Source of the DNA: Candidatus Daviesbacteria bacterium | GTDB taxonomy: Bacteria; Patescibacteriota; Microgenomatia; Daviesbacterales; UBA10151 | Direction: 5' to 3' | NCBI GenBank assembly: GCA_016432425.1 | Contig: CP066688.1 | Span: 446,211 to 510,210 of the forward strand | DNA: 64,000 bases | Shown: positions 10,959 through 38,178 of the stretch, one piece after another | Position numbering within the stretch: position 1 is the first letter of the stretch | Layout: every line of letters begins with the position of its first letter | Program-made: the position numbers and the translations under genes | The notes under the pieces: model-generated | Seen by the model: only the letters and a program-made list of their open reading frames with translations | What the model was told of the DNA's origin: nothing | Database searches by the model: none

Positions 10959-11492
10959 ATGGTGACCCAAGTAATTTTGGTTACTGATGAATTTGGTAAT
11001 TTTACCGGTGAATATATTCCCAAGGAAGTTGGTCATAGCGGTGAAGGGAAAAGACACTTAGCAATTACAGTTTTGATTTATAACAACCGGGATCAAGTTC
11101 TACTTCAGCGAAGGAAACACCAAGTGTTTGATGATATCTGGGATATTACCGGAGCTACTCACCCTTTACATTTAACAAACAGAGATGAAACTGTAGCAGA
11201 AGCCACCCAGCGGTGTTTGAAAAGAGAATATAATATTGAGGGGGTAGCTCTTAAGAATTTAGGTTCTTTTAATTATTTTGCTAAATATGACAATCTTTGT
11301 GAAAATGAACACTGCTATCTTTTAGTAGGGGAATATAACGGTTTAGTTAAATTAAATCCGGAAGTAGGTTATGAGTATAAATGGATTCAAAAAGACGAAT
11401 TTTTACAAGATATTAAGATAAATCCTGATAAATACAGTGCTTGGGCTAAAGAAGCTGTCAAGATTCTAGAGAAAAATGGATTTTTCAATTAA
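10959..11492 (+). CDS. Nudix-fold protein, candidate type-1 isopentenyl-diphosphate isomerase
   Basis: The VLLQRRKHQVFDDIWDITGATHP pattern resembles the IDI-1 Nudix subfamily, and the gene leads an isoprenoid cluster. Confidence 0.45.
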   Translation: MVTQVILVTDEFGNFTGEYIPKEVGHSGEGKRHLAITVLIYNNRDQVLLQRRKHQVFDDIWDITGATHPLHLTNRDETVAEATQRCLKREYNIEGVALKNLGSFNYFAKYDNLCENEHCYLLVGEYNGLVKLNPEVGYEYKWIQKDEFLQDIKINPDKYSAWAKEAVKILEKNGFFN

Positions 11493-11513: not shown

Positions 11514-13322
11514 ATGCCCGAGTCAGAAGAGCAGTTAAACCTTCCTAAGCATTTGGTGCTCATCCCTGACGGCAACGGTCGTTGGGCCCGCAAACATAAT
11601 TTACCCATAGAGGCAGGACATTTTCAAGGGGCTCAAGCAATAAGGGAAATTCTGTATGAGTTACAAGATATGAATGTAGAGGTAGTGACAGTTTGGGGAT
11701 TCTCTACGGAAAATTGGTCCAGATCTCCTGAGGAATCCGCCAATATCATGGGAGTGATGCGAAATTTAATTCAAATAGAAGGAGAACGATTAGCTGAAAA
11801 AGGAATTAAATTTAGGTATATTGGTAGAAGAGATAGAGTTCCTCAGGATCTGTTGCTAGAGATCATAAATCTAGAAGAGAAAACTGTCACTAATCAAGGG
11901 AAAACTTTTGTGCTGGCGCTTGATTATGGAGGTCGGGATGAAATTATTCGTGCCGTCAATAAAGTTGGGGGACAGCCAGTTGATGAAAATAGCTTTAAGG
12001 AATTTTTAGATACTGCCGGTTTGCCAGACCCGGATTTAATTATTAGAACTTCTGGTGAGATGAGAACTTCGGGAATACTGCCTTATCAAAGCGTTTATGC
12101 AGAATTTGTCTCATCTCCGGCTCTGCTGCCAGATTTTAATAAAAATGAGCTCTTGAAATGCTTAAATGAATACTCTCGGAGACAAAGAAGATTTGGCCAC
12201 AGGCCAGACAGTACCATCAGAGCGACCTTTAGTTGGTTAAATCTGCCAGAAAATAGTTTGGATGGTTTTATGGGAGCACTTCTGCCAGTGCTGGATCAGA
12301 CAGCAAATAAATTTGTCGAGCAGTGGCGACAGGGTAGATTTTATAAAAATTCTCCGGCACAGGAGGATATCGATATCTTCCAGAAATTGTTATCTGGTGG
12401 GAAAAAATTAAGACCGGCTCTAGTGGCCTTGGGGTATGAAAATTTTAGAGGGGAGGAGGAATTTCTAGAGGGTATGTTAACTGCCGCGATCAGTTATGAG
12501 ATTATACATAACTCTTTTTTGATTCATGATGATATTATGGATAACTCCTTAATACGGCGTGGTCAACCATCGGTTCATGATCAGTATCGGGCCTTGCATG
12601 AAAATCAAGGTGGGGTTTTAGATTCCACTCAGTACGGTATCGCGGCCGCCATAAATGCCGGAGATCTAGGTCCATTTAGAGCCCTGAAGGCTGTCTGTGA
12701 GATTGAGAATAAACCGGACAGAATAGTAAAAGCAGAGCAATGGTTAAGATATGTGATTGAGACAACACTGCAAGGTCAAAGGAGAGATTTAACAGAGATT
12801 CCGTTGGATCAGTTAACGGAAAAATATGTTTATCAGATTCATCATCAAAAAACAGCCGTTTATAGTGTGGTGGGGCCTTTAACTTTAGGGGCAATTTTAG
12901 CCGGAGCTTCGGAAAAAGAATTAGCCTATTTAAACACTTTTGGGGTGAGTCTGGGAATTGCTTTTCAAATAATTGACGATCATTTAGGCCTTTATGGGGA
13001 CGAGAGAGTTTTGGGTAAATCGGTAGTTTCTGATACCAAGGAAGCTAAAAAAACTTTGCAGTTTACCCAGGCTTATCGTTTGGCAACTTCGCAGCAGAGA
13101 CAATTCTTAAAAGAGGTTTGGGGGAAACAAGATATTACCATAGATGAGCTAGCTCAGGTCAGACAATTAATAGAAGAACTGGGGGTGAAAGAAGTAGTGT
13201 TACAAAGGGCAGATTTACTAGCCCAGCGAGCTAAAAATGTGATCCCTCAAATAACTAGTGACCAAACCATGAGTGATATTTTAGAGGAACTAACAACTTT
13301 TGTAGTTAAAAGGGATTTTTAA
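11514..13322 (+). CDS. Fusion protein: N-terminal cis-prenyltransferase (UPP synthase-like) + C-terminal trans-polyprenyl diphosphate synthase
   Basis: N-terminus has the UppS LVLIPDGNGRWARKHN motif. C-terminal ~370 aa carries both trans-IPPS aspartate-rich motifs, FLIHDDIMDNS and FQIIDDHLGLYGDE. Single 602-aa ORF. Confidence 0.8.
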   Translation: MPESEEQLNLPKHLVLIPDGNGRWARKHNLPIEAGHFQGAQAIREILYELQDMNVEVVTVWGFSTENWSRSPEESANIMGVMRNLIQIEGERLAEKGIKFRYIGRRDRVPQDLLLEIINLEEKTVTNQGKTFVLALDYGGRDEIIRAVNKVGGQPVDENSFKEFLDTAGLPDPDLIIRTSGEMRTSGILPYQSVYAEFVSSPALLPDFNKNELLKCLNEYSRRQRRFGHRPDSTIRATFSWLNLPENSLDGFMGALLPVLDQTANKFVEQWRQGRFYKNSPAQEDIDIFQKLLSGGKKLRPALVALGYENFRGEEEFLEGMLTAAISYEIIHNSFLIHDDIMDNSLIRRGQPSVHDQYRALHENQGGVLDSTQYGIAAAINAGDLGPFRALKAVCEIENKPDRIVKAEQWLRYVIETTLQGQRRDLTEIPLDQLTEKYVYQIHHQKTAVYSVVGPLTLGAILAGASEKELAYLNTFGVSLGIAFQIIDDHLGLYGDERVLGKSVVSDTKEAKKTLQFTQAYRLATSQQRQFLKEVWGKQDITIDELAQVRQLIEELGVKEVVLQRADLLAQRAKNVIPQITSDQTMSDILEELTTFVVKRDF

Positions 13323-13368: not shown

Positions 13369-14085
13369 ATGTTTCATAATACTCATGTCTATATTGCTTC
13401 TAAATTGTATAATTCTGCAGACGAGCTATTGCTTGTAGGAAGTATTCTGCCGGATTTAGCAGTAACAGGAATTATTCAATGGGAGGGTGGCTTACATGGA
13501 AAAGAAAGTGTGAAAAGTTTTTTTCAGTTTATTCAAGGAAATTCGACCTATCTCAATCTATATAAAGGCGTATATGCTCATAATATTTTAGACGATTTTA
13601 CCCACCAAAATTACCAAGGAGAACCAGGGTTTGCCTATCAAAATAATAAAGAGCTCGTCCAGTTAGTTAAGAGATTTTACGATTTAGATGATAAAGGTGC
13701 CGCAGGAAAAGCTCACAACTATATCGAGAGCGGAGTGGATATCTTATTACTTAAAGAGCATCCAGAAGTGCAAAATCAGTTTCGAAAGGCAATTAACCAG
13801 GTAGATAAACCACAATTAGCTTATCTGCTGAGCGCTTATTTTAAAGTAGATGAAGCTAAATTTTTAGTAGCAATACTTCAGTTTTTTGAATTGTTTACTA
13901 AATATGATTTTAGCAAACAAGAAAATTGGGTTTTATTTTGGCAGGATTTGGAAAAACTACTTGTTTTAAAAGATATTGGAGATAAAAATAGAAAAGTATT
14001 AATTGATAAATCCTTAGAAATAGTTAAAAATACTTACCAAGATTTTCTAAATTACTCTCTAACAGAGGGGGTAAAACAAGTTTAG
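13369..14085 (+). CDS. Hypothetical protein
   Basis: 238-aa ORF inside the isoprenoid cluster with no recognisable motif. Confidence 0.35.
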   Translation: MFHNTHVYIASKLYNSADELLLVGSILPDLAVTGIIQWEGGLHGKESVKSFFQFIQGNSTYLNLYKGVYAHNILDDFTHQNYQGEPGFAYQNNKELVQLVKRFYDLDDKGAAGKAHNYIESGVDILLLKEHPEVQNQFRKAINQVDKPQLAYLLSAYFKVDEAKFLVAILQFFELFTKYDFSKQENWVLFWQDLEKLLVLKDIGDKNRKVLIDKSLEIVKNTYQDFLNYSLTEGVKQV

Positions 14086-14123
14086 TTGCAATCAGAGCTG
14101 ATTATTAGTAAAATGCTATTCGA

Positions 14124-15101
14124 ATGGTAGAACAGAACGATTGGTTAGTTATACCTTTTTACAGTGATCCAACTTCAGGTAGTTATGAAACTGCGGTAAG
14201 TAAGTTTGGAGATTTTTTAGTTAGATCTAAAGAAACCATTGGTTTAAACTTAGCAGTAATTGATGATGGTTCCAACCTTACTTTGGAAAAACTTAGACAT
14301 ACTCCTGATTTTTTAGTCACTCTTCCAAAAAATAAAGGTAAGTCTCATGCGATGAGGGAGGGTTTAAGAGCTCTTCTGAAGCAGAATCCGGGTTTTATAG
14401 TTCAATATGATGGTGATGGTGATCAATCATATGTAGATATTCCGGTTGTTTATAACCGCCTGATCGCTTTTTCAGGAGGTAACCCTGATGCACCGGTTTT
14501 AGTAATCGGAGATCGATATTCTGAGGACTTAACTATCCCACCCAATCCGGAATCAGTTGTCTATAGACAGACTATTTTAATGTTTTTTGGTGCTTTAGCC
14601 AAACACTTAGGCTTTGATGATGTTCGTGACTGGGTGTCCGGAGCTAGAGGTTACAGTCGAGAATACGCTAAAAGATTTCTCAGTCAGAGTAAATCCAGCC
14701 GTTATGGATTAGAATCAGAACAGTTAGTGGTAGCTAGTCTAACAGGAGCCAAAGTAACTACCGCTCCTTTAACACAGTCCCGCCCCCGGGATCCCGACAC
14801 TTTAACTTCTAAATGGTTGCAAAATTTTGAAGTCTATTCGGACCATGAACAAGCTTTACGGGAACAAGGTAAGGGTGTGATGGTCGATTTAGTTTATTCT
14901 TTGGTAGATAGTTTAAAGAAAGAAATAGATGAGTTTGATCTTCCATTGGATCCAATCGGAGAAAAAACTACAGTGCATTTTACTCGAAGAGGTGATCGCT
15001 ATGCGGCAGAGATACCACTAGAATATAGGGCTAGGTTGTTTATGGTAGAAGATAAATTCCCTTTTACTATTAGAAAGTCTTCCATCCCTACATCTGTCTA
15101 A
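14124..15101 (+). CDS. Glycosyltransferase family 2-like protein
   Basis: LAVIDDGSN...KNKGKSHAM...QYDGDGDQ, a GT-A fold DxD-type pattern. Confidence 0.5.
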   Translation: MVEQNDWLVIPFYSDPTSGSYETAVSKFGDFLVRSKETIGLNLAVIDDGSNLTLEKLRHTPDFLVTLPKNKGKSHAMREGLRALLKQNPGFIVQYDGDGDQSYVDIPVVYNRLIAFSGGNPDAPVLVIGDRYSEDLTIPPNPESVVYRQTILMFFGALAKHLGFDDVRDWVSGARGYSREYAKRFLSQSKSSRYGLESEQLVVASLTGAKVTTAPLTQSRPRDPDTLTSKWLQNFEVYSDHEQALREQGKGVMVDLVYSLVDSLKKEIDEFDLPLDPIGEKTTVHFTRRGDRYAAEIPLEYRARLFMVEDKFPFTIRKSSIPTSV

Positions 15102-15103
15102 TT

Positions 15104-15913
15104 ATGCCAGAAGATAAAGATGTCATTTTAATCAAGCTTGGGGGAAGTGTGGTGACTGTTAAAGACAGCTCTAATCCTGCTCCGCAACTACAGAATATTG
15201 ATCAATTGGCTAAGGAACTTCACCGGGCCCGAAAAAAAACTGGAGTGAAAATGATATTAGGTCACGGGGCGGGTTCTTATGGTCATCCTCAGGCTGCTAA
15301 ATATCACACCATGGAAGGAGTAGTGGATGAGAACAGTTTAATTGGAGCCTCAGAGGTGAGATTATCTGTGGTTGAGTTAAACTCCATAATTACAAAAAGA
15401 CTATTATCAGCAGGAGAGCCAGTAGTGAGTCTGCCTCCGGCCGCCCTCCTAACTAGTGCTGATGGCTCAGTAGTTAGTATATTTCCTAATCCCGTAGTTA
15501 ACTTCCTCAAAATTGGTATGTTGCCAGTTATATTTGGTGATGTAATTTCTGATGAGAAGAAGGGTTTTACAATCTTCTCCGGTGAACAAGTGCTCAATTT
15601 ATTAGCCAGTAACTTAGCAAAATTTGGCTTAAATCCTAAATTTGTCATTGAGGTTGGGGAAACAGCCGGAGTATATGGTGATTTAAGTAAGAAAGATACA
15701 ATCCCTTTAATTAATAAAGATAATTTTGCCGAGATTGAAGATAAATTAGGTGGTTCAGCTAGTACTGATGTCACAGGTGGAATGGCGCATAAGGTTAAAG
15801 AAGCTTATCAGTTAGCTCAAAATGGTATTCCGACCCTACTTATATCTGCAGATGAAGGTAATTTATATAAAGCCATCTTAGGTCAATCCGTAATAGGGAC
15901 TTGGATCAGATAA
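15104..15913 (+). CDS. Isopentenyl phosphate kinase (amino-acid-kinase family)
   Basis: ILIKLGGSVVT and GHGAGSYGH motifs of the IPK/amino-acid-kinase fold, in isoprenoid context. Confidence 0.6.
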   Translation: MPEDKDVILIKLGGSVVTVKDSSNPAPQLQNIDQLAKELHRARKKTGVKMILGHGAGSYGHPQAAKYHTMEGVVDENSLIGASEVRLSVVELNSIITKRLLSAGEPVVSLPPAALLTSADGSVVSIFPNPVVNFLKIGMLPVIFGDVISDEKKGFTIFSGEQVLNLLASNLAKFGLNPKFVIEVGETAGVYGDLSKKDTIPLINKDNFAEIEDKLGGSASTDVTGGMAHKVKEAYQLAQNGIPTLLISADEGNLYKAILGQSVIGTWIR

Positions 15914-16011: not shown

Positions 16012-17046
16012 ATGGACTTTACAAGTTATTTAAAGGAAGCTGCGGGGGAGATAAATTCTTATTTAATCTCGTTTTTTAATAATTGGTTAGCAGAAGTTAC
16101 AGATATTAGCCCCACGCTTTTGCCTCTGGCAAAAACTCTCTCAGATAACTGTGGTGGGGGAAAAATGTTACGCGGGAGTTTAGTTAAATTGGGATATGAA
16201 CTGGCTGGGGGAAAAAATTTAACAGAGATCTTAAAACCAGCTGTGGCCGTGGAGATTTTTCAAACCGCCATCTTGGCTCACGATGACATTATTGATCAAA
16301 GTCCGCTGCGCCGGGGCAAACCCACTATCTATAAACAACTGGGTGGGGATCATTATGGCATCTCTCAAACAATAGCTTTGGCTGATATTGGCTTTTTCTT
16401 AAGCGTTAAACTCATTGCTGAGTCTAACTTTGACAAAGATAAAAAGAACAAAGCTCTCTCTCATTTTGCTCAAACTGTCATTAATACCGGTTTGGGGGAG
16501 GTTTTAGATGTAGAGTTGCCTCATATTAAAGAAGATAGAGTAGATAAAGATGTTATTACTATCCATAAGCTAAAAACTTCTTATTACACGATTATTGATC
16601 CCCTAACTTTAGGAGCTATTTTAGGAGGAGCGCAGGAGGAAACTCTTAAAGTCATTGCCAAATTTGGAGAAAATTTGGGCATTGCTTTTCAGATTACTGA
16701 TGATATTTTGGGAGTGTTTGGGGATGAAAAGACTCTGGGGAAATCTGTTACCTCTGATATTGAAGAAGGGAAAAATACACTGTTGATTACTTATGCGCTG
16801 CAACAGGCCACAGGAGCTCAAAAGCAGGTGCTGGATAGGTATTATGGCCAGGGTAAGATTGGAGAAAAAGAGTTGGAAATAGTGCGGGCAGTCTTTAAAG
16901 AAACCGGTTCATTGGACAACTCTAGACAAGAAGCGTTAAAATATGTCACACAGGCTAAAGCGGTTATTCCCAAAATAACCCAGGAGTCAAAATATAGCCA
17001 GTTACTGTCACAAATGGCTGATTTTTTAGTTGAAAGAGACAGATGA
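16012..17046 (+). CDS. trans-Polyprenyl diphosphate synthase (GGPP/FPP synthase family)
   Basis: Two aspartate-rich motifs, ILAHDDIIDQS and FQITDDILGVFGDE. Confidence 0.85.
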   Translation: MDFTSYLKEAAGEINSYLISFFNNWLAEVTDISPTLLPLAKTLSDNCGGGKMLRGSLVKLGYELAGGKNLTEILKPAVAVEIFQTAILAHDDIIDQSPLRRGKPTIYKQLGGDHYGISQTIALADIGFFLSVKLIAESNFDKDKKNKALSHFAQTVINTGLGEVLDVELPHIKEDRVDKDVITIHKLKTSYYTIIDPLTLGAILGGAQEETLKVIAKFGENLGIAFQITDDILGVFGDEKTLGKSVTSDIEEGKNTLLITYALQQATGAQKQVLDRYYGQGKIGEKELEIVRAVFKETGSLDNSRQEALKYVTQAKAVIPKITQESKYSQLLSQMADFLVERDR

Positions 17047-17477
17047 TGGTATTTACTAACGTGCTAACCATTAAAAGTAAAAATCCGGCAGTTAAGATGA
17101 TGGACATTACCAAAAAAGTAGAAAGGGAAGTGGTTAAATCCAAAGTAACAGATGGCCAGGTACTGGTTTTTGCCCGCCACACCACTGCCGCGGTGATCCT
17201 GCAGGAAAATGAGCCGGGAATTGGTCAGGATTTACACAATATTCTTTGTGGAATTGCCCCCCAAGAAGGTGACTGGCACCACGATCGTTCATCTGACCAC
17301 CTAAAAGATAAAATGCCTAATGGCCATTCCCATGCCCAGCATGTATTTTTAGGTTCTTCCGAAATAATTCCTCTTTGCCAAGGCAAGATGCTACTAGGAA
17401 CATATCAAAAAATCTTTTTAGTAGAGCTAGATCGAACCAGAATGAGGGATATAGTTGTTCAGGTGACTGGCGAATGA
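17043..17477 (+). CDS. YjbQ/UPF0047 family protein
   Basis: ARHTTAAVILQENEPG ... HSHAQHVFLGSS ... GTYQKIFLVELD matches the YjbQ family. Confidence 0.7.
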   Translation: MMVFTNVLTIKSKNPAVKMMDITKKVEREVVKSKVTDGQVLVFARHTTAAVILQENEPGIGQDLHNILCGIAPQEGDWHHDRSSDHLKDKMPNGHSHAQHVFLGSSEIIPLCQGKMLLGTYQKIFLVELDRTRMRDIVVQVTGE

Positions 17478-17484
17478 AATCGAA

Positions 17485-18210
17485 GTGTCGAAGGATCTTA
17501 TGAAATCAAATGGCTTAGATTATAAAAATATTCCTGCCCATATTGCCATTATCATGGATGGTAACAGGCGTTGGGCTAGGCTGCGTGGCTTGCCTGATCT
17601 TAAAGGCCACGAAAAAGGTGCAGATACCTTAGAAGAAATTGTGGAAGCGGCAGAAAAGCTGGGGATTAAAACTATTACTGTTTATGCCCTCTCGACGGAA
17701 AATATTAAAGAGCGGGCCAAAAGGGAAATCCTGGGTCTTTTTAACCTGATGCGCTCCGGCTATAATACCAAGCTTAAAAAGATGATCAAAAACGGAGTGA
17801 AAGTGGCAGTTTTAGGGCAGGAACAGGGATTACCGGCTGTGATTAAAAAAATTATTAATGAAATCCGCCGTACTTATATTAAAAATGAGTCCATTAAGCT
17901 CAATATTGCCTTAAATTACGGGGGGAAAAAAGAGCTGGTGGATGCCATTAAAGATATAGTTAAGTCCGGGGTGGAAGTAGGCCGGATTAATGAAGAGATT
18001 ATCTCCAAGCATTTATATACTAATGGCCAATCTGATCCGGAGCTGGTGATCAGAACCGGAGGCAGAATGAGGCTGTCTAACTTTTTGCTGTGGCAGACAG
18101 CCTATTCTGAACTGTATTTTACTAATAAACTCTGGCCGGATTTTGATGGCAGTGAGTTAAAAAAGGCTATTATCTGGTACCAAAACCAAAAAAGAAATTT
18201 TGGCAAATGA
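17485..18210 (+). CDS. uppS: Undecaprenyl diphosphate synthase (di-trans,poly-cis-prenyltransferase)
   Basis: HIAIIMDGNRRWA and the conserved UppS core; 241 aa. Confidence 0.9.
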   Translation: MSKDLMKSNGLDYKNIPAHIAIIMDGNRRWARLRGLPDLKGHEKGADTLEEIVEAAEKLGIKTITVYALSTENIKERAKREILGLFNLMRSGYNTKLKKMIKNGVKVAVLGQEQGLPAVIKKIINEIRRTYIKNESIKLNIALNYGGKKELVDAIKDIVKSGVEVGRINEEIISKHLYTNGQSDPELVIRTGGRMRLSNFLLWQTAYSELYFTNKLWPDFDGSELKKAIIWYQNQKRNFGK

Positions 18211-28988: not shown

Positions 28989-29489
28989 GTGCTTTGTTTA
29001 TTTAAAAAACTTAATTTTAAGATGCCTTGGGAATTATTAATTAAATTAGTTGAGTTTCATTTAAATAACCACTGCGATATGACAGTAGGTCTTACCAGTT
29101 ATTTGACAGATTATACAACCGATGTAGGAAAAATCTGGATCAATGGGTTCACGAATGATATTGTTAAATGTCTAGGAAGAGAAGAATATGATACTAATTT
29201 AAATAAAAACATTATTCCGTTAACGAGCGCAGGAATATATATAGTAAATTCACAAAAATTTAAAAATATGTACAAAACGTTTTTAGAAGATAATCAAAAT
29301 ATAAAAGAAACTCAGGTAGAGATGAGAGATCAATTATTACCTTGGTTGATTGGAGAAAAGATTTTCAAAGTAAAGGGTTTTGATTTAAGAGGAGAGATAC
29401 TAGATATCGGAAATTATGAAAGAATTGTTTATGCAAAAAAACATTGGAAGAAATATACTATAAACAATCAGGAAAATAGCCCTCTATGA
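28989..29489 (+). pseudogene. N-terminally truncated sugar-phosphate nucleotidyltransferase remnant
   Basis: 166 aa resembling only the C-terminal half of G1P-nucleotidyltransferases (LTSAGIYIV...GFDLRGEILDIGNYE). Preceded by a ~670-nt AT-rich non-coding gap. Confidence 0.4.
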
Positions 29490-30598
29490 AATATGGGAAA
29501 TTAATAGGTATAGATGCAAATGAAGCAAATCTAATATCTGAACGTGTTGGATCAAATAAGTTAGCATTCAATTTACTTAGGGCGTTGTATAAGTTAAAGG
29601 TGCAATATAATTTTGTGGTGTATCTCTCGAAGCCTCCGTTAGATGATTTGCCGAATCCCAAGGCAAATTGGCAGTACAGAGTTATTTCTCCTGCTAAGTT
29701 TTGGACCCAATGGAGGTTACCGTTAGATCTATATGCTCATAATCCTCGTCCGGATATTTTTTTAAGCCTAGGCCATTATGCACCAAGATTCACTCCGATC
29801 AAAAATATAGTTACTATCACAGACCTAGGTTTCCTGACCTATCCCGAACAATTAACCAGAAAAGATCTTTGGCAATTAAAACATTGGACTGACTATTCTG
29901 TTAGGTCGGCAGGGCATATTATAGCAATTTCTGAATATACGAAGAAAGATATAATAAAGTTCTATCACATTAATCCAAATAAAATATCAATAATTTATCC
30001 TGGGTACGATAAAGATCTGTTTAGACCACTAAATAATCAAAAAGAAATAGAGAAAATACTCCTTAAATACAATATTACTAAACCATACTTATTATTTATA
30101 GGTGCTCTTAAACCAAATAAAAATTTAGAGAGATTAATCACCGCATTTAGTAGGTTGGAGTACAAAAATTTTAATCTAGTTATAGTAGGGAAAAAGGGCT
30201 GGTTTTATGAATCAATTTTTGAAACTGTCTCTAAATTAAAACTTGAGGATAGAATAATTTTTACAGGATTTGTGCCAGATATTGAACTGCCTTTTCTACT
30301 AAATGCAGCTAGATTGTTTGTATTTCCATCTCTGTATGAAGGTTTTGGGATGCCAGTCATAGAAGCTATGGCGTGTGGTACCCCAGTAGTAACTTCTAAT
30401 GTGGCTAGCCTGCCAGAGGTTATCGGTGATGCTGGTGTGACAGTTGATCCTTACAGAGTTGAAGATATAACAGCTGGTATTATTGATGGTTTAGAAAAAC
30501 ATATATTTTATAGCGAAAAGGGTCTAAAAAGAGTAAAATCATTTAGTTGGGATCAAAGTGCAAAACAATTAATAAAAATAATAGAACGCTTCTTATGA
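29486..30598 (+). CDS. Glycosyltransferase family 4 (GT-B, retaining)
   Basis: EGFGMPVIEAMACGTPVV signature of GT4; 370 aa. Confidence 0.85.
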   Translation: MKYGKLIGIDANEANLISERVGSNKLAFNLLRALYKLKVQYNFVVYLSKPPLDDLPNPKANWQYRVISPAKFWTQWRLPLDLYAHNPRPDIFLSLGHYAPRFTPIKNIVTITDLGFLTYPEQLTRKDLWQLKHWTDYSVRSAGHIIAISEYTKKDIIKFYHINPNKISIIYPGYDKDLFRPLNNQKEIEKILLKYNITKPYLLFIGALKPNKNLERLITAFSRLEYKNFNLVIVGKKGWFYESIFETVSKLKLEDRIIFTGFVPDIELPFLLNAARLFVFPSLYEGFGMPVIEAMACGTPVVTSNVASLPEVIGDAGVTVDPYRVEDITAGIIDGLEKHIFYSEKGLKRVKSFSWDQSAKQLIKIIERFL

Positions 30599-30604
30599 CC
30601 ATCT

Positions 30605-31714
30605 ATGGTGTCATCTAATAAACAAATAAATTTTTTCTACTCTAAGACAACAAGTAAAAATGTTCGGATTATTATAGGGATTGATTCAATATTTAACCTG
30701 GATAAATTTCTCAAAAATTTTTATGCAGATATGATTTTTATTATTTGTGATGATAATGTAGCTAATCTTTACGCGAAAAAGATTCAGAAGATAATTAAAA
30801 GATTGCCGGTGTATTTAGTGACTCATTCACCTAATGAAAAAAGCAAAAATCTCAAGACTGCTAAAAAAATCATGGATATAATCATAAAAGAAGGAGGTAG
30901 CGAAAATAGTATTATATGTTCATTGGGCGGAGGTGTTACTGGAAATATTGCAGGTTTTGTCTCTTCGGTTTTATTTAGAGGTCTTACATTAATTCATATA
31001 CCAACTACACTTCTGGCACAATTAGATAGTGCTCCAGATGTAAAGCAATCTCTCAATACGATTCTTATAAAAAACGGTATAGGTTCATATAAGGCACCGG
31101 ATTTAGTATTAATAGATCCTCAATTTATGATCTCATTATCGGAGCGTGATATTAGATCTGGTTATGCAGAAGCGATAAAACATGCTTTTGCTCAAGATTT
31201 AGATTTTATTAAATTTATAGCCAGTCTTTTTAAGAACAACGATTATATAAACCTAAATTATTTAGAGAAAGTTATTATTAAGACGATCTCTTTGAAGATA
31301 TATCACTGGAAGAATGTTCCGACTATGTGGAATGATATGGGTAAAGTTGAGAGACTCACTCATCTGGGTCATACCATAGGTAAAGTATTAGAAATAATTG
31401 ATTTGGGGTATCTTACTCACGGAGAAGCAATAGCGCATGGTATGGTCATAGAATTTTATATATCATTCAAGCTTGGATATCTAGATATAGCTAAAGTTAA
31501 AAAAGCTCAAGAAATTATGAATGATATGGGACTGTTATTTCCTCTAAGTAAAAAATATACTCAGAATAAGATTATGAAGTTACTATATTCATCATCTTCA
31601 GATAAAGAACCATTGGTTGCTCTTTTACAAGATTTTGGTAATCCCGATACAATCTCTTTGCATTTACCTAGAGCAATAACAAAGGAAGCATTAAAATGGT
31701 ATTTTTCATTATAA
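30605..31714 (+). CDS. 3-Dehydroquinate-synthase-like sugar phosphate cyclase family protein
   Basis: LGGGVTGNIAGFVSSVLFRGLTLIHIPTTLLAQLDSA closely follows the DHQS core (GGGV.GD..GF....Y.RG...I.VPTTLL.Q.DS), but the substrate-binding DSSVGGKT is replaced by DSAPDVKQS. Confidence 0.75.
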   Translation: MVSSNKQINFFYSKTTSKNVRIIIGIDSIFNLDKFLKNFYADMIFIICDDNVANLYAKKIQKIIKRLPVYLVTHSPNEKSKNLKTAKKIMDIIIKEGGSENSIICSLGGGVTGNIAGFVSSVLFRGLTLIHIPTTLLAQLDSAPDVKQSLNTILIKNGIGSYKAPDLVLIDPQFMISLSERDIRSGYAEAIKHAFAQDLDFIKFIASLFKNNDYINLNYLEKVIIKTISLKIYHWKNVPTMWNDMGKVERLTHLGHTIGKVLEIIDLGYLTHGEAIAHGMVIEFYISFKLGYLDIAKVKKAQEIMNDMGLLFPLSKKYTQNKIMKLLYSSSSDKEPLVALLQDFGNPDTISLHLPRAITKEALKWYFSL

Positions 31715-31896
31715 AAATATTTTTATAATGTATGGCTTCGGGCATGTTGTTAATCTAGAACCAAAATTAAAGGAGTTTTTATGAAAGTTAGAGAGGGAAC
31801 ATTGAATGAAGAAGCTCTTAAATTTTTTAGTAAGATGGGATTCAATAAATTTGAATCAGATTATATAAGTTTGGAAAGAAAATTAGATTAATAAAT

Positions 31897-32601
31897 TTAT
31901 TCATGTAGGCAGGTAGACCACTTATAGGTAGCTGAACCTGGGTAAAATTGGCAAATGGTTATAAAATCTTCCGAGCTTTGTTTAGCATTAATAATATAAG
32001 AAGCTCCAAATCTAGTTTCATCAGGTTGAGTCTTCATGGTATTGCATTCAACAATACCTGCTATATCAGGGGAACTACAATTCCAAGTTAATCCTGAAGG
32101 AAATTGGACATATTTAGCCACAACTGTAGCTACAGTAGAATTAGAGATAGAAGTAGTAGCTTTAGATATAGATAATGATAAATTCAAATTGAGAGGAACT
32201 TGTTTTTTAGAATCCCACTGGTTAGAGAAATTAACTGCTACTGATCCTACTTGCCATCTATAGCCGAATGAAGAAGGTAACTCTAAAATTTCACCATTCT
32301 GTTTAAAAACACCTTTTTTTAAGTTTAGCTGAGTTTGGTAGGGGGTAGTTAAATACTGGTTAACAAATATTTGCGAAATTTTGGTTACCCCGGTGGGGAT
32401 TTCTAAGGGAATGGTTTGAGAAATGGAATTTTGACTGGTTTGTCTATTAAGATTTAATTTTAAGATGCCTTGAGAATTAAGATAGTAGAGGATAGAGGCC
32501 AGGAGGATTAAAATTAAGACCAGCAGGAGAATTTTGGCCCAAATGGTCTGAAAAAAACTCCTTTTTAGTATTTGTACCTCTGGTTTGGGTATCTCATCCA
32601 T
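31897..32601 (-). CDS. Membrane-anchored hypothetical protein
   Basis: N-terminal TM (ILLLVLILILLASILYYL), then a Ser/Thr/Asn-rich domain. Confidence 0.4.
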   Translation of the reverse strand: MDEIPKPEVQILKRSFFQTIWAKILLLVLILILLASILYYLNSQGILKLNLNRQTSQNSISQTIPLEIPTGVTKISQIFVNQYLTTPYQTQLNLKKGVFKQNGEILELPSSFGYRWQVGSVAVNFSNQWDSKKQVPLNLNLSLSISKATTSISNSTVATVVAKYVQFPSGLTWNCSSPDIAGIVECNTMKTQPDETRFGASYIINAKQSSEDFITICQFYPGSATYKWSTCLHE

Positions 32602-35323: not shown

Positions 35324-36334
35324 ATGGAAATTCTAATTTTGTATAACAGAGCGAGGGAGCTCAAAAAGGGTATACCTTCAGATTTGATCTGTGAGCAGGA
35401 AATGAAAATTATTGTTCCACTGGTAGCTGATCTATTACAAAATAAAGGCTACGGTGTTCAAACATTGAGGACAGAGTTTGGTTTGTGGGAGCAACTCAAA
35501 AAAAGAAGAAAGAGTGTTGATTTGGTTTTAAACCTTGCTGAGGGATTTGGAGGAGGTAATTCTGATGAACCCTTAGTTCCAGCAATGCTAGAAGCTCTAA
35601 ATGTACCATTTACAGGTGCATCTGCTCGTAATATGTATTTTACTCTTGATAAAGAGAAGACGAAGGTTTTTTTACATCAAGCAGGTATTCCTATTCCAAA
35701 ATGGCAATTGTTTAGAGATGAAACAACTGATTTATCACCTGATTTACAATTCCCACTTATAGTTAAACCAGTTAGAGAAGAAGCTAGTATAGGAATATAC
35801 GAAGATAGCGTAGTAACTACGGAGGTTGAGATGAAAAGAAAAGTTTCTCATACTCTTGCAAGGTATAAACAGCCTGCATTGGTAGAACAGTATATTGAAG
35901 GCAGAGAATTATCTGTTGGAATCATTGGTAACTATCCAGATCTGGATGTATTACCTCCACTAGAGTTTTTGTTTGAAGATGCAACGTCACCCCTGCAAGC
36001 ATTTAGATCTTATGAATACAAATGGGGAGGCAGGAAAGAACAAATGGTTCGAGCAAATATTACTCGAGGTTTACATGATCAATTAGTGGATTATGCTAGG
36101 GTCGCTTTTATAGAGACAGAATGTCAGGACTACGCACGAATGGATTACAGAATAGATAAAGAAGGCAATCCTTATTTATTAGAAGTTAATTATAATCCTG
36201 GTATTGGTCCAAATACTCATGGATTAAATAACACTTTAACTATGATGGCTTCTTTTAAAGGATTATCATTTGAAGATATGGTGGAAGATATTATTCTGTC
36301 TAGTGCTAAAAGATATGGTATAGCTACTTCATAA
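35324..36334 (+). CDS. ATP-grasp enzyme of the D-alanine-D-alanine ligase family
   Basis: Ddl-like central and C-terminal ATP-grasp motifs (FPLIVKPVREEASIGI..., EQYIEGRELSVGIIGN, ARMDYRIDKEGNPYLLEVN). Confidence 0.65.
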   Translation: MEILILYNRARELKKGIPSDLICEQEMKIIVPLVADLLQNKGYGVQTLRTEFGLWEQLKKRRKSVDLVLNLAEGFGGGNSDEPLVPAMLEALNVPFTGASARNMYFTLDKEKTKVFLHQAGIPIPKWQLFRDETTDLSPDLQFPLIVKPVREEASIGIYEDSVVTTEVEMKRKVSHTLARYKQPALVEQYIEGRELSVGIIGNYPDLDVLPPLEFLFEDATSPLQAFRSYEYKWGGRKEQMVRANITRGLHDQLVDYARVAFIETECQDYARMDYRIDKEGNPYLLEVNYNPGIGPNTHGLNNTLTMMASFKGLSFEDMVEDIILSSAKRYGIATS

Positions 36335-37653
36335 TGGTCAAAACTATAATTATCGCTAATGTAGCAGAGGCATTTAGTAGATCAATAGCCAAGATTAGAA
36401 GCAGAAAAGAAAAAACTCTTAGATTAGCTATTGAACAATCATTATCCCAACGCAGTATGTTTTGGGGCGGGGATAATAAAGTAGTAATAACACCTTATTT
36501 TATACCAAAATTGTTATTCCATAGGAACTCAATATTTTGTAAATATAAAAATACTGTAAACGTAACTCCTGTCAATGAGAGCATCAATTTATGTGAAGCT
36601 ATTCTTAAAGATAAAAAACTGTATGATTGGCTGAAAGTAATAATAAAAAATAACCCAAAGGTCAACCTTTCTCCCTATAGCTTTACAAATTTTTTCCTAG
36701 AATTGACCCGGAAGCTCAAAGAAGATAATCTGATATTTAAAACTGATGCTATACCGGATAGTAATACTGATGTTGTTTCTTACCTTGATTCTAAATCTGG
36801 TTTCCGGCTTGAACTTCTAAAGCTGCAAAAACAGTTTCCTGAAATAAAAATTCCTTATGGTTTTATATGTAACAATCCAGAAGTGGCTTTAAGAATAGTC
36901 GAACAATTCTATAAGCTTAATGCTTCTTGTGTATTAAAAGCTAATTTAGGTGAGTCGGGGTGGGGATTATTAACAATAAAACCTGGGGTGTTTAAATCTC
37001 TTATAGAACTGAGCAATAGTATAAAGTCTACTATTATTAACGAATCTATTTGGCAGAATGACTCTATAATCATAGAAGAACTAATTTTGCACACGAGTTC
37101 ACCCTCTGTAGAGGTGTTAGTTACTGCAAAAGGTCCAAAAATCACATATATTTGTCAACAAATAATTGATGATAAAGGAACATTTTCTGGAATACTTTTA
37201 GGAAAAAACACTATTAAAACCTCGCTGATTAAAAAATTGATCCATATCTCTTCAATAATAGGAAAAAGATATTGGCAAATGGGTTATAGAGGTTATTTTG
37301 ATATCGATTTTGTCATCTCATATAACGGTACTGCTTTTGCAATAGAAACAAACATGAGAAGGACTGGTGGTACTCATGTCTATGATTTTGCTTGCAAAGT
37401 TTTAGGAAAAAATTGGTTTGAAAAAGCAGTTATTTTATCTAAAGATAATTTTATTTATGGAGATGAAATTATTGATGGAAAAGAGATTTTTAAAAGAGTA
37501 AGTAAAATGTTATTTACAAGTAAAATTGGGAAAGGGGTAGTAATTTCGTTTATTAGTAAATCTATCCCCTTATTAGGATATTTCATCATAGGGGATAGTT
37601 TAGTGGAGGCAAGTAATCTAAAGAGTAGATTTGAGAGTTTAGTTAAGCTATAA
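36334..37653 (+). CDS. ATP-grasp domain protein (carboxylate-amine ligase-like)
   Basis: CVLKANLGESGWGL glycine-rich loop and the downstream ATP-grasp pattern; start overlaps the upstream stop. Confidence 0.45.
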   Translation: MVKTIIIANVAEAFSRSIAKIRSRKEKTLRLAIEQSLSQRSMFWGGDNKVVITPYFIPKLLFHRNSIFCKYKNTVNVTPVNESINLCEAILKDKKLYDWLKVIIKNNPKVNLSPYSFTNFFLELTRKLKEDNLIFKTDAIPDSNTDVVSYLDSKSGFRLELLKLQKQFPEIKIPYGFICNNPEVALRIVEQFYKLNASCVLKANLGESGWGLLTIKPGVFKSLIELSNSIKSTIINESIWQNDSIIIEELILHTSSPSVEVLVTAKGPKITYICQQIIDDKGTFSGILLGKNTIKTSLIKKLIHISSIIGKRYWQMGYRGYFDIDFVISYNGTAFAIETNMRRTGGTHVYDFACKVLGKNWFEKAVILSKDNFIYGDEIIDGKEIFKRVSKMLFTSKIGKGVVISFISKSIPLLGYFIIGDSLVEASNLKSRFESLVKL

Positions 37654-37665
37654 TTTATCCGTTTT

Positions 37666-38178
37666 ATGAAGAATACAAATTTATTGCCTGTTAAACCTTT
37701 TCAAGAAAGTTTAAATAAGGGTTATTGTGGACCAGCAAGCCTAAAAATGGTGCTTGATTATTATGGAGTTAATAAAACTGAAAAGGAGCTAGCTAAGCTT
37801 GCTAATACCACTACTGATTTAGGGACTAATGATCAATCACTAAAGAAAGCTGCAGAGATACTAGGTTTTAAGGTTGACATTAAAAACTATTCTTCTTTTG
37901 AAGATACAAAAAATTGGCTTGATAAAAAAGTTCCAGTAATCGTAGATTGGTTTACTAGAGGCAGAACGGATTATGATGAGTCAGAAGTAGCAGATGGGCA
38001 CTACTCAGTAGTAGTAGGATTAGATGAAGAATTTATCTATTTACAAGATCCAGAGATTGGAAAATTAAGAAAGATTAAGAAAGATGATTTTATGCGTGTA
38101 TGGTTTGATTTTACTGGTGAGTATATTAGCTCATGGCCAGAGATGATTATTAGACAGGTAATAGCCATTTACAGATAG
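37666..38178 (+). CDS. Peptidase C39-like (papain-fold cysteine peptidase) domain protein
   Basis: NKGYCGPASLKMVLDYYGV catalytic Cys motif of the C39/C39_2 family with a downstream His (DGHYSVVVG); 170 aa, stand-alone. Confidence 0.6.
   Translation: MKNTNLLPVKPFQESLNKGYCGPASLKMVLDYYGVNKTEKELAKLANTTTDLGTNDQSLKKAAEILGFKVDIKNYSSFEDTKNWLDKKVPVIVDWFTRGRTDYDESEVADGHYSVVVGLDEEFIYLQDPEIGKLRKIKKDDFMRVWFDFTGEYISSWPEMIIRQVIAIYR

Follow-up and report, generated by a model that had tools for sequence, protein, structure and literature searches.

The window analysed here, a stretch of 64,000 nucleotides from contig CP066688.1 of a Candidatus Daviesbacteria bacterium (assembly GCA_016432425.1, positions 446,211 to 510,210), carries at 11514-13322 of its forward strand a single open reading frame (ORF) that encodes a cis-prenyltransferase (cis-PT) fused to a trans-isoprenyl diphosphate synthase (trans-IPPS). 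The ORF begins with ATG, contains no internal stop and yields a protein of 602 aa; it belongs to a same-strand run composed of a Nudix protein resembling isopentenyl diphosphate isomerase (IDI), the fusion, two proteins of 238 and 325 aa, an isopentenyl phosphate kinase (IPK), a second trans-IPPS, a YjbQ protein and a second cis-PT (window coordinates refer to the forward strand unless marked otherwise). The first-pass annotation of this DNA, made from the sequence alone, had read the ORF as an uninterrupted cis::trans polypeptide, which was borne out by hidden Markov model (HMM) searches: two Pfam domains, PF01255 (Prenyltransf; aa 17-228, 219.6 bits, E 4.9e-65) and PF00348 (polyprenyl_synt; aa 288-551, 186.9 bits, E 4.9e-55), were each matched far above the cut-off of 27 bits. 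No third Pfam domain, and so no terpene cyclase domain, was detected in the Pfam scan of the fusion.

Architecture and continuity of the fused enzyme

The cis domain (aa 17-228, 11562-12197) passed the TIGR00055 model "polyprenyl diphosphate synthase" (183.3 bits versus a cut-off of 109.55) and stayed under the cut-offs of all species-specific PRK equivalogs. Residue conservation was assessed in an alignment of 20 fusions with 30-86% identity to the window protein, to which all statements on invariance refer, and by comparison with an E. coli undecaprenyl diphosphate synthase (UPPS) sequence whose numbering reproduces the published D26, H43, S71, N74, W75, R77, R194, R200, S202, E213 and R242. 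All of these residues and the R-x-G motif are kept in the cis half, and the mapped positions from D19 to G228 are invariant or nearly so among the fusions. The DGNGRWA motif of cis region I, which had been reported for the N-terminus, is present at aa 19-25 (11568-11588), is nearly invariant and provides the equivalents of D26, N28, R30 and W31 (D19, N21, R23 and W24); H37 aligns with H43, and the FSTENWSR segment at aa 63-70 (11700-11723), which holds the flexible-loop and isopentenyl diphosphate (IPP)-activating residues, contributes the invariant N67, W68 and R70 (N74, W75 and R77). The segment RTSGEMRTSGILPYQ at 12045-12089 also lies within the cis domain. R178, E182, R184, S186 and E197 correspond to R194, E198, R200, S202 and E213 (R178, R184, S186 and E197 being invariant), and the RRFG sequence at aa 225-228 (12186-12197) represents the RxG motif with the invariant R225, F227 and G228 (R242, F243 and G244). 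R242 of this motif contacts the IPP diphosphate (10.1101/139675); in the fusion the motif is internal, the trans domain following directly. The UppS catalytic residues, whose possible loss had been considered in the first-pass annotation, are thus retained (equivalents of D26, H43, N74, R194, R200, E213 and R242).

With 40% identity the cis half can be aligned to S. aureus UPPS with one gap, and it matched the structure 4h8e of this enzyme over 229 columns (Foldseek target TM-score, TMt, 0.90; root-mean-square deviation 1.5 Å). It is closest to C55-C60 synthases, with 179 bits to medium-chain UPPS versus 90 bits to the mycobacterial Rv1086, and contains a Gly at the position of E. coli UPPS Ala69. 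Where classical enzymes have SNFLLWQ, the cis half reads SGILPYQ. The corresponding pattern SGxxP[YW]Q was found in 118 retrieved cis-PT relatives, including plain proteins of 230-260 aa, acylphosphatase-fused proteins of ~350 aa and proteins of 426 aa (those with a named source coming from Paceibacteria, Woesebacteria and Nanoarchaeota), and suggests that the cis half is part of a broad cis-PT clade typical of the candidate phyla radiation (CPR) and DPANN. An interpretation of SGILPYQ as a fusion-specific mark or as one of an irregular, lavandulyl-type enzyme was rejected, because the motif occurs in these 118 proteins including single-domain ones and Asn74 is kept; lavandulyl diphosphate synthase has His in place of Asn74.

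The core of the trans domain (aa 288-551, 12375-13166) belongs to a fold that runs on to aa 602 (13319). Its first Asp-rich motif is DDIMD (aa 339-343, 12528-12542), with a Phe at position -4, and the second is DDHLG (aa 488-492, 12975-12989); of the two DDxxD motifs claimed in the first-pass annotation only the first therefore stands as such. In the second motif D488 and D489 are invariant, and the place of the third Asp is taken by Gly in the main clade, while P0029 and the P0037 clade have Asp there. Invariant or nearly so are, in addition, K297, R300, D339, D340, D343, R348, K446, T447, F484, Q485, K502 and D507, among them the diphosphate-binding Lys and Arg residues (K297, R300, R348, K446 and K502, all invariant). 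The trans half stayed under the cut-off of every NCBIfam model for a farnesyl diphosphate (FPP), geranylgeranyl diphosphate (GGPP) or longer-chain synthase that it matched (score/cut-off: GGPP_syn 165/500, FPPsyn 112/275, f2_encap_cargo4 199/450, IdsA 143/468; the FPP/GGPP synthase equivalogs tried include NF045485, NF041003, NF040698 and NF042416), and in consequence its product specificity is not assignable by homology. By sequence and by fold the closest solved relatives are M. tuberculosis Rv2173 (8f8f/8f8k/8f8l; E 6e-33), deposited in the PDB as a (2E,6E)-FPP synthase, and the GGPP synthase of C. glutamicum (3lk5/3qqv; E 2.5e-32), with TMt values of 0.89-0.91 to 3qqv and 8f8k. Both enzymes are stand-alone proteins with an identity of ~26-28% to the trans half in structural alignment, and both share with it the sequence DDxLGvFGD and an insertion after the first Asp-rich motif. 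Since DDxLG is also present in these two enzymes, the DDHLG motif is regarded as a subfamily trait and not as a lesion. According to the rule derived from Ohnuma/Tarshis-type mutagenesis, chain length is governed by the residues at -4/-5 of the first Asp-rich motif; here the three enzymes differ, with Trp at -5 in Rv2173, no such residue in C. glutamicum GGPP synthase and Phe at -4 in the fusion.

The junction between the two domains (aa 229-287, 12198-12374) matches the N-terminal helices of stand-alone trans orthologs. Indeed, P0035 and P0121 (371-379 aa) align from fusion residue ~233-238 on, so that no true spacer is left and the helices with which the trans domain begins follow immediately on the RxG tail of the cis domain. 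An AlphaFold2 model of the fusion, built on an alignment of 71 sequences, placed a helix at aa 249-272 of the junction and reached a mean confidence (pLDDT) of 93.2 and a pTM of 0.76, the pLDDT falling to 67-78 only around aa 221-240. A Foldseek search against the PDB revealed no chain spanning both halves (best query TM-score 0.55).

The continuity of the reading frame is documented by several observations. The ORF sequence contains no N, and its longest homopolymer is 7 nt overall and 5 nt within the junction region 12100-12400. A protein with 100% identity is encoded on an NCBI contig of 820 kb from a metagenome-assembled genome (MAG) of Candidatus Daviesbacteria. The junction can be aligned across the 20 fusions and is conserved in part (RRFGxR...FxWLNL...W...RFY). 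The closest ortholog, at locus L170, originates from a different sequencing run and shares 86% aa identity with one 1-aa gap in the alignment; a frameshift or split at the junction, the possibility raised in the first-pass annotation, was not found in either sequence. Between the two genes dN/dS amounts to 0.086 for the cis part, 0.062 for the linker and 0.066 for the trans part at a dS near saturation (about 1.1-1.26), and because dN/dS is low while dS is near-saturated, the reading frame is kept by selection across the junction. The fusion is real and not an assembly artefact.

Distribution of the fusion and gene neighbourhood

A word-index search followed by domain-wise BLAST over all retrieved sequences revealed the same fusion in relatives, as the first-pass annotation had proposed to look for: 36 clusters of proteins that carry the two domains were obtained, their sources being NCBI, JGI, ENA and Logan assemblies. 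The fusion is nevertheless rare. A HMMER search of 1.84 billion representatives at 50% identity gave 18,907 hits at E ≤ 1e-10, and among the best 150 of these only two were full-length fusions (P0029 and P0032), the others being single-domain proteins that include the stand-alone orthologs P0124 (cis, 57%) and P0121-P0123 (trans, 45-50%). The metagenome scan was likewise dominated by single-domain trans-IPPS, and most of its "full-length" matches turned out to be two genes; in the scan of GTDB genome contigs with the fusion alignment generic motif matches prevailed, close Daviesbacteria relatives not being among the matches listed. Separate genes in the order cis to trans, often overlapping, were present in Eisenbacteria, Levyibacteriota, Ilumatobacter and a gammaproteobacterial MAG, and separate neighbours in the order trans to cis in Bipolaricaulota and many metagenomic contigs (in both cases among the matches listed). 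Adjacent but separate genes elsewhere are the pattern of a Rosetta-stone fusion.

Rough neighbour-joining trees of both domains were calculated without support values and with a sampling biased toward relatives of the query. In these trees 29 main-clade fusions clustered together with few single-domain members nested among them, and both a 632-aa group (P0032-34, P0268) and a ~570-aa group (P0037, P0038, P0045) were sister to single-domain proteins in either domain tree, which tentatively suggests at least three independent fusion events. Locus L004 has an ortholog of the fusion trans half, 50% identical to it, and next to this a divergent cis-PT gene with SGxxPxQ follows. This split cis partner (L004 4958-5752, +) has R200 replaced by His together with a 4-aa insert, E213 by Gly and W31 by Ala, and may represent a degenerate cis-PT or a non-catalytic cis-PT-like subunit.

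Other domain combinations were encountered among the relatives. The loci L093 (1594-3150, +) and L100 (2125-3678, +) each contain an ATG-initiated ORF of 518 aa in which an IDI-like Nudix domain (aa 1-170) precedes a trans-IPPS (aa ~208-518); upstream of it lies an IspH-like gene, identified by eye, and downstream a cis-PT of 233 aa with SGMMPWQ that is of the same type as the fusion cis half. This Nudix::trans-IPPS protein is a second Rosetta-stone fusion. Acylphosphatase (PF00708)::cis-PT proteins of ~340-365 aa (P0040, P0043, P0047, P0054, P0126, P0130 and others) were found in MAGs labelled Paceibacteria and Nanoarchaeota; their cis-PT part occupies residues ~115-348 and is 45-52% identical to the fusion cis half. 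An acylphosphatase-like domain on a polyprenyl diphosphate synthase could act on a phosphoanhydride (pyrophosphate or the product diphosphate). In a further group of cis-PTs with 423-431 aa (P0046, P0052, P0060, P0067, P0074, P0164 and P0217; P0060 labelled Candidatus Woesebacteria), the N-terminal PF01255 domain is followed by a C-terminal extension of ~190 aa without Pfam domain.

In the window, the gene directly upstream of the fusion (10959-11492) encodes the IDI-1-like Nudix protein. The putative IDI of the first-pass annotation is IDI-1-like and matches the Pfam NUDIX family, but its scores remain below both NCBIfam cut-offs (PRK03759 72.8 versus 127 bits, TIGR02150 57.3 versus 105.8 bits) and the catalytic Cys67 is replaced by Ala. 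H25, H32, H69, E87, Y104, E114, E116 and W161, including the metal ligands, are kept, and the top PDB match is the C67A mutant of E. coli IDI. Orthologs adjoin the fusion or its split orthologs at L001 (6928-7473), L003 (6027-6548), L004 (3290-3856) and L170; the Cys67 position is occupied by Ala in L001, L003 and L004, by Ser in L006 and L015 and, by eye, by Ile in L093. The Nudix protein may isomerise IPP via another acid/base residue, or it may be a prenyl or isopentenyl diphosphate hydrolase that partners the IPK. Literature assignments of "IDI-I" in CPR may need re-examination.

The interval between the fusion and the IPK gene (13369-15101) is filled by two poorly characterised genes. The 238-aa protein gave a sub-threshold match to Zn_dep_PLPC, and the 325-aa protein, which is GT-A-like, is faintly similar to PpgS (21.8 bits versus a cut-off of 370). 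A family 2 glycosyltransferase, as first annotated, is weakly founded for the latter, which has the motifs DDGS and DGDGD and no Pfam hit; sequence searches of the PDB with both proteins returned no usable relative. The pair also follows the fusion in L170, but not in L001, L003 and L089. The IPK-like kinase of the first-pass annotation (15104-15913) could be identified as an IPK by a full-length match (8-268; profile of 259 positions) to NF040647 IPPK_Arch, with 184.7 bits versus a cut-off of 120.

The second trans-IPPS and PF01255 protein were found where the first-pass annotation had placed them. The stand-alone trans-IPPS (16012-17046; hereafter transB) has no aromatic residue at -4/-5 of its first motif and a second motif DDILG, and its orthologs are present in L004 (59%) and L089 (48%). 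It is followed by a YjbQ/UPF0047 protein (17043-17477; PF01894 114 bits, TIGR00149 108.7 bits), which occupies the same position in L004, and by the stand-alone cis-PT of the annotated UppS type (17485-18210; hereafter cisB; PF01255 256 bits, TIGR00055 235 bits), which is 31% identical to the fusion cis domain. The designation of cisB as a canonical uppS agrees with its passing of TIGR00055, but of the two cis-PTs it is the less canonical one at W75, E198 and R242: in the window gene Ile plus a 1-aa insert stands for W75, Arg for E198 and Asn for R242, deviations that the L004 and L089 orthologs conserve. The resulting signature, shared by the window gene, L004 10599-11288 and L089 6531-7220, consists of STEN(I/L)K(E/Q)R for STENWxR, Arg or Val for E198 and RNFG for RRFG, and in every case the partner of a gene with this signature is a trans-IPPS without an aromatic residue ahead of the first Asp-rich motif. 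Arg and Asn both occur naturally at the Arg position of RxG (10.1101/139675); the notion that cisB is defective through its Asn at R242 was toned down accordingly, and its deviations are regarded as a lineage signature and not as a mark of inactivity. In L089 the transB and cisB orthologs directly follow the fusion, and L004 contains both sets, there with the split pair; two parallel trans and cis sets are a conserved feature of the lineage.

A promoter and terminator scan of 10.7-18.7 kb gave a signal at shuffle background, so that the operon structure rests only on the short same-strand gaps. The neighbourhood recurs among the relatives: L170 repeats the first five genes of the window run, and an IPK is located near the fusion also in L001, L003 and L088. 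In L001 and L002 the order is DsbA-DUF3105-ZIP-Nudix-Nudix-fusion with the IPK close by; in L003 it is MurA-like, Mur ligase, FemAB, MraY, Nudix, IPK, Nudix, fusion, FtsW, MurG and, further on, FtsA; in L088 it is IPK, Nudix, fusion and FtsZ. A split trans ortholog in L086 lies inside a complete mevalonate operon (HMGR, HMGS, thiolase, MVK, MDD). The locus context points to lipid-carrier synthesis. The unusually rich isoprenoid toolkit emphasised in the first-pass annotation does exist, but has already been documented for Microgenomates (PMC6107057).

The P0011 and P0014 fusions belong to one sub-clade. No AA_kinase-type IPK was seen in their sequenced flanks; divergent from the fusion lie, at L087 7416-8928 (-) and L089 1928-3440 (-), a gene for an AIR-synthase-related protein (PF00586, ThiL/SelD-like) and a Nudix gene. 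The AIR-synthase-related protein may be an alternative kinase for the same job. Downstream of the prenyl genes, the window encodes on the opposite strand a 502-aa protein (18542-20050, -) that has a type IV pilin-like prepilin motif, FTLIEILVVITIIGVL, at its N-terminus and a C-terminal region rich in Cys, and beside it a 1084-aa ORF (20868-24122, -); in L086 and L088, too, the prenyl cluster is bordered by similar large ORFs. Low-GC stretches at 24001-26000, 28001-32000 and 36001-38000 (0.31-0.35 versus about 0.40-0.46 elsewhere) coincide in part with unannotated genes and with genes for glycosyltransferases and DHQ-synthase-like proteins; these stretches may represent islands for sugar modification that were acquired.

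Predicted reactions and alternative explanations

The core of the first-pass annotation, namely that the product of the trans enzyme is the kind of allylic primer used by the cis enzyme, is supported by the biochemistry of the separate enzymes: UPPS converts FPP and 8 IPP into C55-PP, the allylic primers are supplied by trans enzymes, and enzymes of either class form homodimers (PMC7839719). For the fusion we consider it probable that both domains are active and work in sequence to give a Z,E-polyprenyl diphosphate. The trans domain would join dimethylallyl diphosphate and IPP into a short all-E allylic diphosphate; its nearest relatives, an FPP and a GGPP synthase, together with the Phe at -4, suggest a length of C15-C20 for this product. 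The cis domain would take this product as primer and add IPP with Z geometry; its C55-C60 synthase relatives, the one-gap alignment with S. aureus UPPS and the Gly at Ala69 are consistent with a medium- or long-chain polyprenyl diphosphate. After dephosphorylation, the product would act as the lipid carrier of glycans in the synthesis of peptidoglycan and further polymers of the envelope, a role that is argued from the context of the division and cell wall (dcw) cluster. A single chain would enforce a 1:1 stoichiometry and the co-localisation of both steps. As the RxG tail, which closes over the IPP site in homodimeric UPPS, would run directly into the first helix of the trans domain, both active sites are probably held close to each other, and direct channeling of the primer between the domains is plausible.

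Several observations weigh against this interpretation. The position of R39 of E. coli UPPS, which contacts the FPP (allylic) diphosphate, is Ile in the window fusion and variable among the fusions; the residue is likewise missing from the stand-alone cis-PT of the window (Asp there), and its loss is a lineage trait, R39 not being strictly defining of the family. The residue aligned to the tunnel-floor Leu137 is Lys or Gln in the fusions, for which reason the chain length of the cis product is not readable from the sequence; an inference from this position was dropped, as Lys or Gln is there without citable precedent. In the sub-clade of P0010, P0011 and P0014 the cis domain contains Tyr for H43 and Val for G29. 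Finally, the same operon encodes a separate trans-IPPS and cis-PT (16012-18210 in the window, and also in L089 and L004). Because this set is co-encoded, the fusion need not be the peptidoglycan-carrier enzyme here, and its position only 2.7 kb downstream is the reason why we give the fusion somewhat better than even chances, and no more, of being the peptidoglycan carrier synthase of this organism.

The joining of two adjacent genes through a missed frameshift or stop could in principle account for the ORF, given that the genes are adjacent, overlapping or in different frames in many lineages and that one indel could fake a fusion. It is, however, incompatible in practice with the recurrence of this architecture in 36 clusters that stem from independent projects, with the conserved junction peptide, which is devoid of long homopolymers and which L170 maintains in frame at a linker dS of about 1.2 and a dN/dS of 0.06, and with the order of the split loci most often recovered (trans to cis), which is opposite to that of the fusion; we regard an artefact as extremely improbable. 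It might also be supposed that one half is a pseudo-enzyme and that only the cis or only the trans domain is active, the other serving as scaffold or regulator. Non-catalytic partners are indeed known for both classes (NgBR for cis-PT, the small subunits of GPPS and HexPPS for trans enzymes; PMC7839719; 10.1101/139675), the second Asp-rich motif lacks its third Asp, and the split cis partner of L004 is without R200, E213 and W31. Yet the known catalytic residues of both halves are invariant or nearly so across the fusions, DDxLG is shared with the deposited FPP synthase Rv2173 and with C. glutamicum GGPP synthase, and dN/dS is equally low in the two halves, all of which renders a catalytically dead half very unlikely.

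More serious is a division of labour, in which transB and cisB make the peptidoglycan carrier and the fusion provides a second polyprenyl diphosphate with another primer or length; the product might then serve another glycoconjugate or itself be a membrane constituent, and a sequential arrangement in the manner of Rv1086 and Rv2361c would also be possible. The two sets are found together, even contiguously (window, L089, L004), the two cis-PTs share only 31% identity and fall into different clades (SGxxP[YW]Q versus SNFLLWQ), the chain-length position is not the same in the two trans enzymes (Phe at -4 versus none), and cisB orthologs are more conserved (69-76%) than the fusion cis domains (55-59%). 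In L003 and L088, on the other hand, it is the fusion and not a cisB-type gene that lies among MraY, FtsW, MurG and FtsZ, and with 118 retrieved relatives the cis clade of the fusion is apparently a common CPR/DPANN form. On balance, such a division of labour is held to be unlikely, and the preferred reading remains that of a sequentially acting bifunctional synthase of polyprenyl diphosphate carriers. A farther-reaching version of this reading, to which we accord little probability as a whole, would be a self-contained "C5 to polyprenyl" synthase: the RxG tail would tether the trans domain over the partner site and the primer would be passed on unreleased; two carrier systems, the fusion and transB-YjbQ-cisB, would run in parallel and, differing in primer or chain length, serve different envelope polymers; and together with the IDI-like::trans-IPPS and acylphosphatase::cis-PT fusions they would form a physically integrated pathway specific to CPR/DPANN.

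Relation to known enzymes and significance

Cis- and trans-prenyltransferases are a textbook case of unrelated folds with analogous chemistry, and to our knowledge all descriptions so far present them either as separate enzymes or as hetero-oligomers whose subunits come from a single class. The separate enzymes IspA and UppS/IspU comprise the same two folds and perform the same consecutive reactions, i.e. the synthesis of an all-E primer and its Z-elongation. In contrast to this pair, the fusion consists of one chain without spacer, its cis half has SGxxP[YW]Q for SNFLLWQ and is devoid of R39, and its trans half is not IspA-like. The fungal chimeric prenyltransferase-terpene synthases, e.g. 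the fusicoccadiene synthase PaFS, combine a trans-prenyltransferase with an enzyme that consumes its product; there the partner is a terpene cyclase, and the proteins are eukaryotic and make secondary metabolites. The concept of a fused producer and consumer is alike in both cases, with no implied sequence kinship beyond the trans-prenyltransferase fold. A precedent for two cis-PTs in one organism is given by the mycobacterial Z-FPP synthase Rv1086 and the decaprenyl diphosphate synthase Rv2361c, which act one after the other and are unfused; their structures 2vg1 and 2vg2 were among the fold matches of the fusion.

The mevalonate genes, archaeal-type IPK and IDI-I syntenic with cis-IPPS that Hoshino and Gaucher (2018) described for Microgenomates (PMC6107057) represent the same lineage and the same neighbourhood as the window. 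In that study the gene is treated as a cis-IPPS with no mention of a fused trans-IPPS, and fused unrelated sequence was trimmed before phylogeny (PMC6107057). No natural cis::trans prenyltransferase fusion was found described in the full texts searched, including a 2026 review of polyisoprenoid biosynthesis, the coverage of the literature being incomplete. The protein thus apparently represents an undescribed fusion, a new domain architecture made of two well-known enzymes with a textbook functional link. No concept is overturned by it, and the predicted chemistry is conventional.

The fusion offers a tractable system for the channeling of FPP or GGPP and for the arrangement of two obligate homodimer folds in one chain, as well as a compact part for the engineering of polyprenols. 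In the databases the identical Daviesbacteria protein is named only "di-trans,poly-cis-decaprenylcistransferase", i.e. after its N-terminal half alone, so that metabolic reconstructions of these reduced genomes miss the trans-IPPS activity. For the biology of the lineage, the fusion constitutes a Rosetta-stone proof that one subfamily of trans-IPPS is a dedicated primer supplier for the CPR/DPANN-type cis-PT.

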